Source: an uncultured Actinomycetota bacterium (lineage in GTDB: Bacteria; Actinomycetota; Actinomycetes; Mycobacteriales; SCTD01). From it: a stretch of DNA of 64,000 bases. Position 1 is the first letter of the stretch; each line of letters opens with the position of its first letter. The notes below the pieces were generated by a model, which saw nothing but the letters and a program-made list of their open reading frames with translations, made no database searches and was not told the origin of the DNA. Positions 2,819 through 48,286 of the stretch are shown here, piece after piece. Both the position numbers and the translations under genes were made by a program. The stretch spans positions 129,613-193,612 of the forward strand of contig CAVXBV010000007.1 of NCBI GenBank assembly GCA_963760125.1, in the 5' to 3' direction.

Positions 2819-5358
2819 TCGGCGGCGGCGTCCCTCGCGCGAGCGCGCAGGGCACGGACCACACCGTCTCGTCCCTCGCGCAGCAGGCGCACGAGGGCCT
2901 GCGGCGCCGTGCCGGCCTCGAGGTAGGCGTCGGTGCGCTCCACCACGGCCGGTGACACGAGCAGGGTCGGGTACAGCCCGATGACGAGGTTCTGTGCCAT
3001 CTCGTTGGTGCGTTCGGCCCAGAGGCGGTCGAGCGACGCGAAGTAGGGCTCGACCCACGGCTCGAGCAGGGCGACCTGCTCGGCGTTCGCGAAGCCGCTG
3101 ATGACGGCCGCCTGGACGGCGTTGGGCAGGTCGTCCGTGTCGACGACGGACGCCCAGGCCTCGGCCTTCGCCTCGGCGGTCGGTCGAGCCGCACGGCAGG
3201 CGGCGGCGTGCCGCTGGCCGGCCGCGGTGGGGTCGTGGCCGACCTCGGCCTCGATCGCGCCGTCGCCGGCGCGGCCGACCGCGACCAGGCGGTGGAGCAG
3301 CAGCCAGCGCAGCTCAGCGTCGATCGCGAGGCCGGGGACCTGCGCCGATCCGTCGAGCAGACCCGCCAGCAGGTCCAGGGCTTCGTCGGTCGCGGCCAGC
3401 GAGCCCAGGCTGCGGGCCCACGCGAGCTGCAGGTCGCTGCCCGGTTCGGCGGCGAGCAGCTGCTCGTGGGCGGCGGACGCCAGCGAGGCTCGCCCGGTCG
3501 GCGCCCAGCTGGGGTCGGCGAACAGCGTCACGGCGGACTGCGCCTGGCGCAGCAGCGACTGGACCACGCCGATGTCGGTCTCGCCGGCGATGCCGCGCAG
3601 CACCAGCGCGACGTAGTCGCGTGCCGCCATCTCCGCGTCGCGGGTCATGTCCCACGCGGCCGCCCAGCACAGGGCGCGGGGCAGGGAGTCAGCGAAGTCG
3701 CCCACGTGGTCGACGAGCGTGGCCAGCGACGTCTCGTCGAGACGGATCTTGGCGAACGTCAGGTCGTCGTCGTTCACGAGGACGAGGGCCGGCTGCGCGC
3801 GCCCGAGCAGGCCGGGGACGTCGGTCTTGGCGCCGAGGACGTCGAGCTCCTCGCGGTGGGTGCGGACGAGCGTGCCGTCCACCAGGTCGTACAGCCCGAC
3901 CGCCACGCGGTGGGACCGCAGGGTCGGCCACTCGGCCGGCGCCTCCTGCACGATCGAGAAGGCCGTGAACGTCCCGTCGGGGTCGGTCTCGAACGCGGCG
4001 CGCAGGGTGTTGCAGCCCGCCGTCTCGAGCCACTCCGAGGAGAAGTTCGACAGGTCGCGGCCGCTGGCCGCAGCCAGCTCGACGAGCAGGTCCGGCAGCT
4101 CGGTGTTGGCGTACTCGTGCTTGACGAAGTACGTCTTCAGGCCGTCGAGGAAGGCGTCCTGCCCGACCCACGCCACGAGCTGCTTGAGCACGGAGGCGCC
4201 CTTCGCGTACGTGATGCCGTCGAAGTTGACCTTCACGTCCTCCATGTCCTGGATGTCCGCGGCGATCGGGTGCGTGGTCGGGAGCTGGTCCTGGCGGTAG
4301 GCCCAGGTCTTCTCGGTGTTGGCGAACGTGGTCCACGCGTTGGTCCAGCGGGTCGCGTCGGCCTGGCAGAGCACCGACATGTACGTCGCAAAGCTCTCGT
4401 TCAGCCACAGGTCGTTCCACCAGCGCATGGTGACGAGGTCACCGAACCACATGTGCGCCATCTCGTGCAGGACGGTCTCGGCACGGCGCTCGTACGCCGC
4501 ATCGGTGACCTTCGACCGGAAGACGTAGTCCTCCAGGAAGGTGACCGCTCCCGCGTTCTCCATGGCGCCGGCGTTGAACTCCGGCACGAACAGCTGGTCG
4601 TACTTGCCGAAGGGGTAGCGGTAGTCGAACACCCGGTGGAAGTAGTCGAAGCCCTGCTTGGTGATGTGGAACAGCTCCTCGGCGTCGAGGTGCTGCGCCA
4701 GCGAGCCGCGGCAGTACAGACCGAGGTCGATCCCGTCGTGGGAGTCGTGGACGTGGTGGTACGGACCCGCGATCAGCGCCGTGATGTAGGTCGACATGCG
4801 GGGCGTGTCCGTGAAGGACCACGTGCCGGGCTCTCCCTCGGCGGGCTGCTCGGTCACCGCAGCGTTCGTGATGACGACCCAGTCGCGCGGTGCCCGCACG
4901 GTGAGGCGGAAGACGGCCTTGAGGTCGGGCTGGTCGAAGCAGGCGTACATCCGGTGCGCGTCGAACGTCTCGAACTGCGAGTAGAGGTAGACCCCGCCGT
5001 CGACCGGGTCGACGAAACGGTGCAGGCCCTCGCCCGTGCGCATGTAGGCGCAGTCGGCCTCGACGACGAGCTCGTTCTCCGCGGCCAGGCCGGGCAGCTG
5101 CAGGCGGTTGCCGTCGAAGTCCGTGACCGGCGTGCCGTTCAGCGTGGCCGACAGCAGCGTCGGGGCGGTGAGGTCGATGTACGTCGACGCTCCGGGCTCG
5201 GTCGCGGTGAAGCGCACGACGGTGCGCGAGCGGAACGTCGTCTCTCCGGGCTTCTCGCCTGCCCCGTCGGTCAGGTCGAGGGTGACGTCGTACGACTCCA
5301 CCGCGAGCAGGGCGGCCCGGGTGCGGGCCTCGTCGCGGTGCAGGTTGTTCTCGCTCAC
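2815..5358 (-). CDS. pepN: aminopeptidase N (M1 family)
   Basis: GAMENAG exopeptidase motif and HEMAHMWFGD..WLNESFA zinc site. Start set at GTG 5358 (VSENNLHRDEA), preceded by an AAGGA Shine-Dalgarno; the ORF-track start at 5391 is 11 codons longer. Confidence 0.95.
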   Translation of the reverse strand: MSENNLHRDEARTRAALLAVESYDVTLDLTDGAGEKPGETTFRSRTVVRFTATEPGASTYIDLTAPTLLSATLNGTPVTDFDGNRLQLPGLAAENELVVEADCAYMRTGEGLHRFVDPVDGGVYLYSQFETFDAHRMYACFDQPDLKAVFRLTVRAPRDWVVITNAAVTEQPAEGEPGTWSFTDTPRMSTYITALIAGPYHHVHDSHDGIDLGLYCRGSLAQHLDAEELFHITKQGFDYFHRVFDYRYPFGKYDQLFVPEFNAGAMENAGAVTFLEDYVFRSKVTDAAYERRAETVLHEMAHMWFGDLVTMRWWNDLWLNESFATYMSVLCQADATRWTNAWTTFANTEKTWAYRQDQLPTTHPIAADIQDMEDVKVNFDGITYAKGASVLKQLVAWVGQDAFLDGLKTYFVKHEYANTELPDLLVELAAASGRDLSNFSSEWLETAGCNTLRAAFETDPDGTFTAFSIVQEAPAEWPTLRSHRVAVGLYDLVDGTLVRTHREELDVLGAKTDVPGLLGRAQPALVLVNDDDLTFAKIRLDETSLATLVDHVGDFADSLPRALCWAAAWDMTRDAEMAARDYVALVLRGIAGETDIGVVQSLLRQAQSAVTLFADPSWAPTGRASLASAAHEQLLAAEPGSDLQLAWARSLGSLAATDEALDLLAGLLDGSAQVPGLAIDAELRWLLLHRLVAVGRAGDGAIEAEVGHDPTAAGQRHAAACRAARPTAEAKAEAWASVVDTDDLPNAVQAAVISGFANAEQVALLEPWVEPYFASLDRLWAERTNEMAQNLVIGLYPTLLVSPAVVERTDAYLEAGTAPQALVRLLREGRDGVVRALRARARDAAAD

Positions 5359-9207: not shown

Positions 9208-9281
9208 TGGAGCGGGCGACGGGAATCGAACCCGCGTAGTCAGTTTGGAAGACTGGGGCTCTACCATTGAGCTACGCCCGC
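9208..9281 (-). tRNA. tRNA-Gly (anticodon UCC), CCA encoded
   Basis: The reverse complement GCGGGCGTAGCTCAATGGTAGAGCCCCAGTCTTCCAAACTGACTACGCGGGTTCGATTCCCGTCGCCCGCTCCA folds as a cloverleaf. Anticodon loop is CTTCCAA and the T-loop is TTCGATT. Confidence 0.9.
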
Positions 9282-10074: not shown

Positions 10075-10150
10075 CGGGGCGTAGCGTAGTGGCTAGCGCG
10101 CCTGCTTTGGGAGCAGGAGACCGCGGGTTCGAGTCCCGCCGCCCCGACCA
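10075..10150 (+). tRNA. tRNA-Pro (anticodon UGG), CCA encoded
   Basis: CGGGGCGTAGCGTAGTGGCTAGCGCGCCTGCTTTGGGAGCAGGAGACCGCGGGTTCGAGTCCCGCCGCCCCGACCA. The anticodon stem is CCTGC/GCAGG and the loop is TTTGGGA. Confidence 0.9.
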
Positions 10151-27356: not shown

Positions 27357-27462
27357 CGACCGGACCACCAGACCTACGGCCAGACCGCCAGACCAGCCCG
27401 GGCCCGGACGGGGCGCCACGCGCAGCACGGTGGACAAGGCTGGGCGCCCGTACCCTGGAGTC

Positions 27463-29366
<1,904 letters not shown>

Positions 29367-29367
<1 letters not shown>

Positions 29368-30158
29368 TGGCCAAGCAGCCCCCCGGTGCGCCCCCGCCGC
29401 CGCCGGTGCAGCGGATCCGGCTGCGCTACACCAAGCGCGGCCGCCTGCGCTTCACCAGCCACCGCGACATCGCGCGCGTGTTCGAGCGCGCACTGCGCCG
29501 CGCCGAGGTCCCCATGGCGTACAGCGCCGGCTTCAGCCCCCACCCCAAGGTCAGCTGGGTCGGCGCGGCTGCGACCGGCGTCGCGAGCGAGGCGGAGTAC
29601 GTCGAGATCGCGCTCGCCGTGGTGAGCGACGTCGAGGCCATCCGGGCCGCACTGGACGCCTCGCTGCCGGACGGGATCGACCTGGTCGACGCCGTCGAGG
29701 CCGCGCCAGGCAGCAGCCTGCCCGAGCAGGTCCAGGCCAGCCGCTGGGAGATCGCCCTGCCCGGCGTGGCGACCCCGGACCTCGAGCGGGCCGTGAGCCT
29801 GTTCCTCGCGCAGGAGGCGGTCGAGGTCGAGCGGATGACCAAGAACGGCAAGCGCGTGTTCGACGCGCGCGCGGCCGTGGTGAGCATGAGCGGAGGGCCG
29901 CCGCCGACACCCCGCGGGTCCGGCAGCGCAACAGATGGTGACGACTGTGCGATACTCAGCATGGTCGTGCAGCACGTGACGCCTGCCGTACGCCCCGACG
30001 ACGTCCTCACCGGACTCCGTCTGGTGAGTGACCTCGCGCCACCGGTGCCGCCCTCGGCGACCCGGCTCGCGCAGGGCCCGCTCACCGCGGAAGGTGAGGT
30101 CGCCGACCCGCTCGCACCCGACCGCGTCGCCGCCGGAACCCTCCGCGCGTCGACCTGA
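29367..30158 (+). CDS. TIGR03936-type radical SAM-associated protein (DUF2344)
   Basis: IRLRYTKRGRLRFTSHRDIARVFERALRRA..PMAYSAGFSPHPK is the hallmark N-terminus of DUF2344. The start overlaps the upstream stop (TGATG). Confidence 0.8.
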
Positions 30159-30313
30159 CGGGGCAACGCGACAGGTCAGCGAAGCCGCCGGCTCTCGGTC
30201 CGCCGGGAGCACCCCACGACTTTCCTCACCCCGCGTCGGCCGACCCGGCCGGCACGGGACAGCGACCACTGGTCGCCGCGGCAGCGTCACGCGAGCGGCC
30301 GGACCGGAGCACC

Positions 30314-33300
30314 GTGCTCGACAACGAGCCCAGCACCCCCGCCACGACCACCCCCGCCACGACGACCCCGCCACGACCACCCCGGGCGACGGGATCCCGC
30401 CGAGCGCGGTGGCCGCCGAGCCCAGCACGACCCCGGACGCTGTCACCGAGGCGCCGAAGAAGGCCGTGCGCCGCCGGGCCACGAAGGCCACCGCTGCGCC
30501 CAAGGCCGAGGCGACCGACGAGAGCGCCGCCGCCCCCGAGGCGCAGACGCCGGCTGCCGAGGCCGAGTCTCCGGCTGAGGACGCGGCGCCGAAGAAGGCC
30601 GCGAAGAAGGCTCCCGCCAAGAAGGCAGCCCCGCGCAAGCGGGCGGCCGCCAAGCCCGACAGCCCCACCGACAGCCCCACCGACAGCCCCACCGACAGCC
30701 CCACCGGCAGCCCTGCCGACAGCACGGACGTCGCTGCCGAGGACGAGGACGCCGCCGACCCGGGCCGAGCGACCGAGGCACCCGACGCGTCCCCCACGGA
30801 CATGCCCTCGGACACGCCCTCGGACCCGCCCGCCGACGCGACCGCCGGGTACGGCGACGAGGCCACCCCCCGCCGCCGTACCCGCGCCCCGGCCGTCGTC
30901 CTGACCTTCCAGCCGCCCGTCCCGACCGAGGACGCTCCCGCCCCGCGCCAGCGCCGTCGTGCCGGCACCGCCGGCGCGGTGAACCCGGCCGACGTCGTGA
31001 GCACCCAGGCCGCCGACGAGCAGGCCAAGGACGCCACCGCCGACGAGGACACCGAGGACGACGACACCGAGGGCGGTGCCCGCCCCCGCCGCCGTCGCGG
31101 CCGTCGTGGTCGGGGTGGTTCGGGCACCCGGACGGCCCAGGGCACAGACGACGCCGACGAGGACGACGACACCACCGGTGACAGCGCGGACAGCCCCGGC
31201 ACCCGCTCCAGCGGATCCCCCCGCAAGGCCGCCGGCACGAGCGCCGACGCCAGCGAGGACGACGAGGACGAGGACGACGAGGACGGTCCCGCGGGCACCG
31301 GCACGCGTCGCCGTCGGCGGCGCCGCCGCAGTGGCGGAGGCGGCGGAGGCGGCGGTCAGAGCGGCGACGGCGACAACGACGCCGACGGCGATGTCCCGAC
31401 CGTCGTGCACGTCCGCGAGCCAGGCTCCCGCAGCTCCGGCAGTGGCGGCGGTGGCAGCCGCAACCGCAGCAGCCGCGACCGCGACGGCGGCGGCGCCGCT
31501 GACGAGGACGGCGTGCGCGGCATCAGCGGCAGCACCCGTATGGCCGCCAAGCGCGTCCGGCGCCAGGAGGGTCGCGACAGCGGCCGCAAGCGCGCCCCCA
31601 TCGTGTCCGAGGCAGAGTTCCTCGCTCGCCGCGAGGCCGTCGAGCGCCAGATGGTCGTCCGTCAGAAGGGCGACCGCACCCAGATCGCGGTCCTCGAGGA
31701 CGGCATCCTGGTCGAGCACTACGTCACGAAGGCCAGCGCCACGTCGTACGCCGGGAACGTCTACCTCGGGCGCGTGCAGAACGTCCTGCCGAGCATGGAG
31801 GCGGCGTTCGTCGACATCGGCAAGGGCCGCAACGCCGTGCTGTACGCCGGCGAGGTCAACTGGGAGGGCGTGTCGGGCGGCTCGCGCAAGATCGAGCAGG
31901 CGCTGAAGTCCGGCCAGGAGGTCCTGGTCCAGGTCAGCAAGGACCCGATCGGCCACAAGGGCGCCCGCCTCACCAGCCAGATCAGCCTGCCCGGCCGCTA
32001 CCTGGTCTACGTGCCCGAGAGCTCGATGACCGGGATCAGCCGCAAGCTGCCCGAGACCGAGCGCACCCGGCTGAAGAACATCCTCAAGAACGTCGTCCCG
32101 GACGGCGCCGGCGTGATCATCCGCACGGCCGCCGAGGGGGTGTCGGAGGAGGAGATCGCCAAGGACGTCCGCCGGCTGCAGGCGCAGTGGGAGGTCATCC
32201 AGAGCAAGACCTCGCAGGGTGGCGCGCCCAAGCAGCTGCACGCCGAGCCCGACCTGGTCATCAAGGTCGTCCGCGACATCTTCAACGAGGACTTCACGAG
32301 CCTGGTGGTCCAGGGCGACTCCGAGTGGGACACCATCCGTGAGTACGTCGAGTTCGTGGCCCCCGACCTCGCGCCGCGCCTGAGCCGCTTCGCCGGCAAC
32401 GGTGACGTGTTCAGCGAGCACCGGGTGGACGAGCAGCTGCTTAAGGCGCTCGACCGCAAGGTGCACCTGCCCTCGGGCGGCTCGCTGGTCATCGACCGCA
32501 CCGAGGCGATGGTCGTCGTCGACGTCAACACCGGCAAGTACGTCGGCAAGGGCGGCAACCTCGAGGAGACGGTCACCCGCAACAACCTCGAGGCCGCGGA
32601 GGAGATCGCCCGCCAGCTGCGCCTGCGCGACCTCGGCGGCATCATCGTCGTCGACTTCATCGACATGGTCCTCGAGAGCAACCGCGACCTCGTGGTCCGT
32701 CGACTGGTCGAGTGCCTCGGTCGTGACCGCACCAAGCACCAGGTCGCCGAGGTCACCTCGCTGGGCCTGGTCCAGATGACTCGCAAGCGGGTGGGTCAGG
32801 GTCTGCTCGAGAGCTTCAGCGAGACCTGCGAGTCCTGCAACGGCCGCGGCGTGAAGGTCCACCTCGACCCGGTCGACCCCAAGCCGCACCGCGACGACCG
32901 TGACCGCGCCCCGCGGGTCGGTCCGAAGCCGCCCCTGCCGGCAGGCGCTCCCGCGCCGGCCGAGAACAAGGAGCCGGCTGAGGGCGGTGGCTCGCGCAAC
33001 CGCCGTCGCCGCGGAGGCCGTGGGCAGGGCGCCGGATCGCTGCCGCTCGAGAGCACCGTCGACCCGTCGAACGAGCTCGCCGAGATCCTCGACGCCGGCA
33101 AGGCGCTCGCCGCGCAGACCCCCGTGGCCGACGCCGTCGAGCAGGCGACGCCCGTCGTGGCTGTCCCGGCGCCGGTCGAGGTCGAGATCGCGGCGGACGT
33201 CCCCGTCGCCGATGCGGTCGAGCAGGCCACCGAGGTCGTGCTCGAGCCCGAAGCGGTGCCCGTGCTGCAGGACCCGCCCGTCGAGGAGCCCGACCTGGTC

Positions 33301-33399
33301 GCGACGCCTGTGAGTGACGCGCCTGCCGAGCCGGCTGCGGAGCCGGTGAAGAAGCGCCGCCGCGCCGCCAGCCGCCCGGCCGGCAGTCCCACCGACTGA
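30314..33399 (+). CDS. rne: ribonuclease E/G family protein (RNase E) with an apparent 1-nt frame break near 30366-30370
   Basis: S1 domain GNVYLGRVQNVLPSMEAAFVDIG, catalytic core VVVDFIDM, Zn-link CESCNGRG, and long Arg/Asp/Pro-rich disordered N- and C-terminal regions. The catalytic frame is open from 30028, but its first in-frame start after the upstream gene is GTG 30409. GC3 and a GGAG Shine-Dalgarno support an upstream start at GTG 30314 in another frame (see finding). Confidence 0.85.
30341..30384 (+). repeat. 15-bp tandem repeat x3 (encodes ATTTP); the middle unit is 1 nt short
   Basis: The units are gccacgaccaccccc, gccacgacgacccc and gccacgaccaccccg. The second unit has a C4 run where C5 would keep the frame. 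Confidence 0.7.
30658..30717 (+). repeat. 12-bp in-frame tandem repeat x4, plus one degenerate unit (DSPT repeats) in the rne N-terminal region
   Basis: gacagccccacc is repeated perfectly 4 times (30658-30705), followed by ggcagccctgcc. Confidence 0.8.
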
Positions 33400-48213: not shown

Positions 48214-48286
48214 GGGGCTGTGGCGCAGCTGGTAGCGCACCACACTGGCAGTGTGGGGGTCAGGGGTTCGAGTCCCCTCAGCTCCA
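48214..48286 (+). tRNA. tRNA-Ala (anticodon GGC), CCA not encoded
   Basis: GGGGCTGTGGCGCAGCTGGTAGCGCACCACACTGGCAGTGTGGGGGTCAGGGGTTCGAGTCCCCTCAGCTCCA. The anticodon loop is CTGGCAG and the G3:U70 Ala identity pair is present. Confidence 0.9.

Follow-up and report, generated by a model that had tools for sequence, protein, structure and literature searches.

The rne locus and its two reading frames

The window, by which we mean the whole 64-kb stretch of DNA analysed (71.7% G+C), carries the RNase E gene rne in the order radical-SAM (27430-29367), DUF2344 (ATG 29367 to TGA 30156-30158), rne, rplU, rpmA and obg, a synteny that is common to its relatives. The RNase E/G catalytic domain lies at about 31984-32793 and is recognised as PF10150 RNase_E_G (E = 5.4e-99), with a full-length match (1-270 of 270) to residues 526-795 of the 996-aa product read from GTG 30409. 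The regions on both sides of this domain are of low complexity, rich in Arg, Pro, Asp, Glu and Ala, and contain in-frame tandem repeats; the N-terminal disordered region is repeat-rich with about 75% G+C. A central PF10150 domain between long, disordered Arg/Pro/acidic flanks is also the architecture of actinomycete RNase E, as in RNase ES of S. coelicolor and the mycobacterial enzyme (PMC10126417). The position of rne upstream of rplU-rpmA-obg is likewise shared with the actinomycete genes. Unlike these, however, the deposited window sequence has its first 19 codons out of frame, and its N-terminal spacer carries a lineage-specific (ATTTP)x3 that is not seen in relatives. The features at the 5' end of the gene are as follows.

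30159 to 30313, + strand: rne 5' leader, 155 nt from the DUF2344 stop to the rne start (seven-locus alignment; RNAalifold)
30306 to 30309, + strand: Shine-Dalgarno (SD) sequence GGAG, 4 nt 5' of GTG 30314, read from the sequence and part of the conserved block CCGGACCGGAGC
30314 to 30369, + strand: opening 18 2/3 codons of rne, beginning with GTG (30314-30316), coordinate mod 3 = 2; conserved start
30370 to 30904, + strand: out-of-frame extension of the 30314 frame, Arg/Pro-rich and without homology, stop at 30902-30904 (ORF 30314 to 30904, 196 aa)
30370 to 33399, + strand: rest of rne, mod 3 = 1, comprising disordered N-terminal scaffold, catalytic domain and disordered C-terminal region, stop at 33397-33399
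30409 to 30411, + strand: GTG, by frame reading the sole catalytic-frame start after the upstream gene, equivalent to an internal Val in the related locus L086

The catalytic frame (codon starts at coordinate mod 3 = 1) is open from 30028, and ATG, GTG, TTG and CTG are all absent from it between the upstream stop and GTG 30409. The frame of GTG 30314 (mod 3 = 2) reads VLDNEPSTPATTTPATTTP, that is V L D N E P S T P A T T T P A T T T P, and 30314-30369 translates as VLDNEPSTPATTTPATTT-P(CC). Each of these 19 codons ends in G or C, for which the chance in an off-frame with about 70% third-position G+C is approximately 0.7^19 = 0.001. Past 30369 the same frame becomes CCA CGA CCA CCC CGG ... GGA TCC CGC CGA, and its third-position G+C (GC3), which is 1.00 over 30295-30369, takes off-frame values of about 0.5-0.86 beyond the repeat. 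GC3 in the catalytic frame is 0.93-1.00 from about 30325 on. Inside the repeat that separates the two regimes GC3 is 1.00 for both frames, because A falls on codon position 1 in one frame and on position 2 in the other. GC3 alone therefore cannot locate the switch within 30331-30370, and we located the break by repeat unit lengths and homology instead.

These data agree with a sequence-only reading of the locus. Its claim that the catalytic frame lacks a start between 30158 and GTG 30409 is confirmed by the listing of start codons, and its description of a GTG 30314 frame behind GGAG 30306-30309, with all codons of the stretch ending in G or C, by direct reading. The reversal of frame quality that it placed after about 30370 is likewise apparent, the 30314 frame turning there to CCA/CGA-type codons next to a catalytic frame of high GC3. 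The two GTG codons also differ in predicted pairing with the anti-SD sequence: the duplex energy is -6.8 kcal/mol before GTG 30314 versus -4.1 kcal/mol before GTG 30409, the latter being close to the window-wide median for ATG/GTG triplets. Neither the window RNase E, under nine candidate starts, nor the 196-aa product from 30314 is present in the protein collection.

The leader between DUF2344 and rne has features of its own. It contains the conserved blocks GGGGCAACGCGACAGGTC..CGAAGCCG.CGG, GACTT and GGT.G..G.GGCAGCGTCACGC, and RNAalifold predicts for the seven loci a consensus structure of six helices and 50 pairs. Compensatory changes are found in 13 of these 50 pairs, whereas shuffles gave 5.4 +/- 1.7 and slid controls 2-5. 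The long 3' stem is predicted to extend to the first two G of the SD, and the last bases of the start codon, together with the opening codons, make up a small, invariant predicted hairpin, GCUCG-ACAA-CGAGC. The leader has no match in Rfam, and when a covariance model of the seven leader sequences was run against 79 more distant actinomycete rne loci, no convincing hit emerged. This stretch may be a clade-specific regulatory leader of rne. High third-position G+C in the third frame of the leader (30175-30310) was considered as a small ORF and rejected, as there is no start codon there.

The conserved N-terminus and the tandem repeat

We searched the protein collection with the repaired protein, in which one base is added after 30369, and tallied the N-termini of the 120 best matches. 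These are RNase E proteins of uncultured Frankiales and Mycobacteriales, the best ones at 63-89% local identity. An N-terminus of the (M/V/L)(L/P)(D/E) type stands at the start of 89 of the 120 (e.g. MLDNEP, MLDDES, MLDEPT), with exact LDNEP in 15 of those 89. Five more carry this cap motif a few residues inside an over-extended start, bringing the number with a cap at or near the start to 94 of 120, while the other 26 are contig-end fragments, truncated calls or proteins with different N-termini. About 94 of the 120 continue from the cap to the catalytic domain. The cap is followed by (I) a hypervariable spacer of about 10-45 residues, rich in Thr, Ser, Asp, Glu and Pro and often with its own lineage-specific short repeats, and (II) a nearly invariant basic motif, APKKA(P/V)RRRATKA(A/T)AAP. 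In the window as deposited, the clade-typical arrangement of cap, spacer and basic motif in one frame is split, with the cap at mod 3 = 2 and the motif at mod 3 = 1. Repair brings all three into one frame. The repaired product from GTG 30314 is about 1028 aa long, with approximately 557 residues before the catalytic domain and 200 after it, so that the domain is central.

Three further searches added no close relatives. The repaired N-terminal 240 aa, used alone as a protein query, gave no match at E <= 1e-5, probably due to low-complexity bias correction; a whole-protein scan of genome contigs returned only distant actinomycetes with a catalytic-domain identity of at most 73%; and scanning metagenome contigs with degenerate DNA patterns for LDNEPSTPATTT and GDG(I/V)PPSA(V/A)AAEP gave no match.

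At the nucleotide level, seven related loci show hardly any difference in the SD, the start codon or the first six codons. The string GTG/ATG CTC GAC AAC GA does not vary among the seven, which are the window and six relatives, the sixth codon is CCC in five of seven, and the block CCGGACCGGAGC is found in six of seven, L084 being the one that deviates. Together with the anti-SD pairing and the N-termini of the homologues, this conserved start context identifies GTG 30314 as the ancestral, functional and conserved start of rne.

The closest relative allows the break to be examined base by base. A single protein clusters with the DUF2344 protein of the window at 90% identity or above, and it is encoded on L086 (contig JBKJQP010000437.1, assembly GCA_046593805.1, 4335 bp), which shares 88% nucleotide identity with the window over 4.3 kb. 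In L086 the annotated rne begins at the counterpart of GTG 30314 and remains open for 737 codons, to the contig end; its product begins VLDNEPSTP-DSTTSDSLSPDSVT-PGDGIPPSAVAADPSTAPDGVTEAPKKVVRRRATKATAAP, identical to the window through VLDNEPSTP. Pairwise DNA alignment reveals that the 61 nt up to ...AGCACCCCCG are identical in the two loci, as is the post-spacer block ACCCCGGGCGACGG. Between these identical flanks the window is shorter by exactly 1 nt: its spacer, between AGCACCCCC and GGCGACGG, measures 44 nt versus 45 nt in L086.

Aligned with the RNase E of L086, the repaired window protein is gap-free through residues 1-66 and shows 79% identity over 797 aligned columns. Global alignment with L086 reveals zero indels in the radical-SAM and DUF2344 genes and one 1-nt indel in the non-coding leader. 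Within rne, gap lengths are divisible by three, singly or summed over an adjacent pair, with the exception of the 1-nt gap at the break, which is the sole uncompensated non-multiple-of-three indel in rne across the 4.3 kb aligned. Directly downstream, 30385-30408 differs from L086 at one position, and this difference is synonymous in the catalytic frame. A more distant relative, L081, carries VLDNEPST...TAGDGVPPSAAAAEP in a single frame.

Tandem Repeats Finder reports at 30334-30383 a repeat with a period of 15 nt, 3.4 copies and 5% indels. Its units are resolved as follows.

30341 to 30384, + strand: three tandem units of 15, 14 and 15 nt (Tandem Repeats Finder; spacer length relative to L086)
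30341 to 30355, + strand: repeat unit 1, 15 nt, GCCACGACCACCCCC
30356 to 30369, + strand: repeat unit 2, 14 nt, GCCACGACGACCCC, ending in C4
30370 to 30384, + strand: repeat unit 3, 15 nt, GCCACGACCACCCCG
30366 to 30369, + strand: C4 run closing the middle unit (unit comparison; 1-nt gap relative to L086 within the spacer; insertion restores collinearity with L086)

Were the middle unit 15 nt long, the repeat would encode (ATTTP)x3. Read against the homologues and L086, the break is a deficit of one base somewhere in 30341-30384, and the likeliest site of the missing base is the C4 run at 30366-30369, where a CCC or CCG proline codon would have been cut to CC. It is the only frame break that we found in the 64-kb window. 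Across all 64 kb, a scan for coding signal revealed no further gene in which that signal sets in ahead of a usable start codon, and Pfam searches on segments with long low-signal tails returned separate, complete domains.

The earlier proposal of a switch within the repeat, with a C4 in the middle unit, is thus supported by the unit lengths of 15, 14 and 15 nt, and that of a real start at GTG 30314 with one base missing from the middle ATTTP unit by the N-termini of the homologues and by the spacer of L086. It had also asked whether orthologues start (M/V)LDNEP and carry ATTTP-like repeats: the former holds, whereas the repeats are not shared, their place being taken by the hypervariable Thr/Ser/Asp/Pro-rich spacer. 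A start of the orthologues at the equivalent of GTG 30409, named there as an observation that would count against the break, is not what we find.

Frame breaks in relatives and possible biological functions

Frame breaks in this region are not confined to the window. In L081, on a contig of 671 kb, and in L085, on one of 82 kb, rne is broken twice within the same N-terminal disordered region, the breaks having been placed by three-frame reading (tblastn alignments ran through the frame changes). Each of the four has its own position, within or next to a short tandem repeat or low-complexity run, and the genes flanking rne are intact in both loci. Both are long contigs named 'contig_N' from the ENA assembly ERZ25039498. 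In L080, L082, L083, L084 and L086, rne is intact and in a single frame, and L080, L082, L083 and L084 look like short-read assemblies.

One possible function of the break is recoding, by programmed -1 frameshifting or by transcriptional slippage in the C-rich repeat, which might tune the dosage of RNase E. The shift that would be required is indeed -1, the break falls within Pro and Thr codons with C runs (ACC CCC, ACC CCG) on which slippage of a single tRNA is conceivable, and rne is autoregulated in other bacteria. Overlapping frames whose products are joined by a -1 shift also characterise the programmed sites of dnaX and of IS element transposases. Unlike these, however, the break in rne has neither a slippery heptamer nor a stimulatory structure nor a conserved two-frame arrangement. 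The X XXY YYZ heptamer is absent from 30314-30385, and none appears in the codon listing of 30314-30420; the 91 nt downstream (30370-30460) fold with a minimum free energy of -33 kcal/mol, compared with a shuffle mean of -35.7 (z = +0.84), in a test of pseudoknot-free folds. A run of four C is far too short for polymerase slippage. Furthermore, relatives with an intact rne, including the sister genome at 88% identity, need no shift, and the breaks in L081 and L085 lie at unrelated positions. The missing conservation largely refutes recoding, which we regard as very improbable. Programmed frameshifting had been ranked as the least likely option from the sequence, a ranking with which the lack of heptamer, stimulatory structure and conservation is in line.

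Equally improbable, in our estimate, is a phase-variable N-terminus, in which RNase E would be turned on and off by the C run or the repeat serving as a contingency tract. In its favour are the position of the break, in a homopolymer that is part of a tandem repeat, and the hypervariability of the spacer among lineages. Against it, copy-number slippage of a 15-nt unit, being divisible by three, keeps the frame, and the homopolymer is only 4-5 bases long (C4/C5). Phase-variation tracts are typically of at least seven bases, and 4-5 bases is well below the lengths that slip usefully. RNase E is moreover a housekeeping enzyme, and we know of no precedent for its phase variation.

Origin of the missing base and consequences for annotation

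The base could also have been lost from the genome itself. A genuine, very recent 1-nt deletion would agree with the sequence as deposited; the cell would then make a 196-aa junk peptide from 30314 and RNase E through the weak GTG 30409, or rne would be an incipient pseudogene. RNase E would lose its first 32 residues, including the conserved MLDNEP cap, although the product from GTG 30409 retains the invariant APKKAVRRRATKATAAP motif and everything downstream. Such a loss could conceivably be tolerated, since the RNase E gene of Streptomyces coelicolor (RNase ES) is dispensable, and RNase ES derivatives shortened by about 800 residues at the N-terminus retain the ability to complement an E. 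coli rne null (PMC10126417).

Several observations nevertheless make a recent deletion unlikely. The SD pairing of GTG 30409 is no better than that of random ATG/GTG triplets, and termination-reinitiation coupling is not available to it, because the other frame would be translated through 30409 to 30904. The N-terminal cap and the start context are kept clade-wide, and there is no sequence decay on either side of the break: the coding signatures are perfect (GC3 1.00) on both sides, and this, together with the near-identity to L086, means that the decay expected of an old frameshift is lacking. Similar breaks occur elsewhere in the gene in the long-contig relatives, while the remaining relatives are free of them, a pattern that suggests a technical origin. 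A deletion that is real and fixed, with a cap-less RNase E made from GTG 30409 or a full-length one made by low-level -1 slippage of tRNA-Pro/tRNA-Thr, we consider quite improbable. Were it true, a central enzyme of RNA decay would carry a natural lesion that lowers its dosage, and a real deletion would provide a natural test of the need for the conserved N-terminal cap.

The missing base is most probably a consensus indel error, and we infer a technical cause rather than a mutation. Seven proteins of the window lie on one 669,816-bp contig in NCBI and ENA, which indicates a metagenome-assembled genome, and contig size and source labels suggest that the assembly was made from long reads. The 'contig_N' style of naming seen for L081 and L085 is also used for soil metagenome-assembled genomes built from nanopore reads only with Flye and Medaka, where polishing is directed against residual indel errors (PMC12313526).

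The break resembles the indel errors of such nanopore-only assemblies in that a single base is lacking from a short homopolymer within a tandem repeat while the orthologues are intact, that the coding signal is kept on both sides, and that sister long-contig assemblies are broken elsewhere in the region. It has in addition the marks of an artefact: coding signal and homology resume in the shifted frame, and the closest independent genome, L086, is intact at the site. There are also differences from typical nanopore errors, in that the homopolymer of the window is short (4-5 C), there is a single break per 64 kb, and the platform is undocumented. These points count against an error. With one break in 64 kb, the assembly is not generally error-ridden, and a change from C5 to C4 concerns a homopolymer that is short for current chemistries. 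The assembly as a whole is good, with the error confined to a difficult repeat. An error had been listed among the options when the sequence was first read, and it is the one that the evidence favours.

If the base was lost in the consensus, the organism's rne would be a normal, intact gene of the actinomycete type, of about 1028 codons, starting at GTG 30314 behind the conserved GGAG and a conserved leader with its predicted structure. The deposited sequence would lack one base in the middle unit of (ATTTP)x3, in the simplest case through C5 having been read as C4 at 30366-30369, and this loss would artificially shift the first 19 codons away from the frame of the remainder. Its most likely cause would be an indel error at the consensus or polishing step of a metagenome-assembled genome from long reads. 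Errors of this kind would concentrate in the short tandem repeats of a hypervariable, very G+C-rich disordered region, where strain-level heterogeneity of the repeat may have confused the consensus.

We suggest that rne be annotated from GTG 30314 with a suspected frameshift or sequencing error at 30366-30369, and that neither GTG 30409 be taken as its start nor the gene be labelled a pseudogene. In the long-contig assemblies of the clade that we examined, frame breaks recur in the N-terminal disordered region of rne, and truncated RNase E calls in such genomes (e.g. P0030, P0008) should not be taken as biology.

Repeats and frame breaks in the N-terminal region of rne

Besides the repeat at the frame break, the disordered N-terminal region of rne holds three more tandem repeats, none of which (0 of 3) disrupts the reading frame.

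Further tandem repeats in the rne N-terminal region (window coordinates)
30536-30577, 21 nt x 2
30656-30723, 12 nt x 5.7, encoding DSPT repeats
30793-30831, 12 nt x 3.2

Most of this repeat stretch is absent from L086, the locus of the sister genome, where alignment with the window leaves gaps at 30672-30764. We therefore find that the region evolves by both repeat expansion and contraction. L086 also lacks, relative to the window, 27 nt encoding nine residues (NLEETVTRN) within the conserved catalytic domain of RNase E (L086 about 4240-4255, corresponding to window about 32556-32582). This gap is flanked by two NLE-coding direct repeats and could be either a genuine deletion that preserves the frame or a collapse in that assembly.

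In the related long-contig loci L081 and L085 (ENA ERZ25039498; contig_17778 and contig_79231, respectively), the disordered region carries two frame breaks each, all in or beside short repeats.

Frame breaks in rne of the long-contig relatives (locus coordinates)
L081, about 3060-3070 and about 3900-3930
L085, about 1893-1912 and about 2340-2375

As a result of these breaks, RNase E is called as truncated proteins of 645 aa in L081 (P0030) and 674 aa in L085 (P0008), and the truncated calls in turn leave approximately 1.2 kb of apparently gene-free DNA.

Protein records and neighboring genes

The window RNase E (30028-33399) was absent from the protein collection for all nine candidate starts checked, as was the 196-aa product encoded in the 30314 frame. 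Proteins neighboring rne on the same 669,816-bp contig are present in the collection. Upstream, the mechanical ORF of the DUF2344 gene (window 29043-30158) runs too long: the recorded start is ATG 29367, which yields 263 aa and lies in a TGATG overlap with the radical-SAM stop codon. The coding signal of this gene is weak over its final ~270 nt, yet the C-terminal peptide of its product is kept in both L081 and L085. Across the whole window, the only Rfam matches at the gathering threshold are three tRNA genes.

Rfam-matched tRNA genes (window coordinates)
9211-9281, minus strand
10075-10147, plus strand
48214-48286, plus strand

A conserved leader and start-codon hairpin

The window shares with six related loci a conserved and apparently structured rne 5′ leader (30159-30313 in the window, with an extension to 30331), whose consensus has 50 pairs in six helices. 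Compensatory changes occur in 13 of these pairs, compared with 5.4 ± 1.7 in shuffles and 2-5 in slid controls. The long 3′ stem of the predicted structure reaches the first Gs of the Shine-Dalgarno sequence. No family was matched in an Rfam search of the leader, and its covariance model detects it only within this clade, with no convincing match among 79 more distant actinomycete rne loci.

At the start codon itself, an invariant hairpin, GCUCG-ACAA-CGAGC (window 30316-30329), spans the last start-codon base and the four and a third codons that follow it, those for Leu-Asp-Asn-Glu plus the first base of the Pro codon. Since every column is invariant, this hairpin offers no covariation. Constraint acting on the RNA may help to conserve synonymous sites in the LDNE(P) cap, and the modeled leader is a candidate autoregulatory element of rne.
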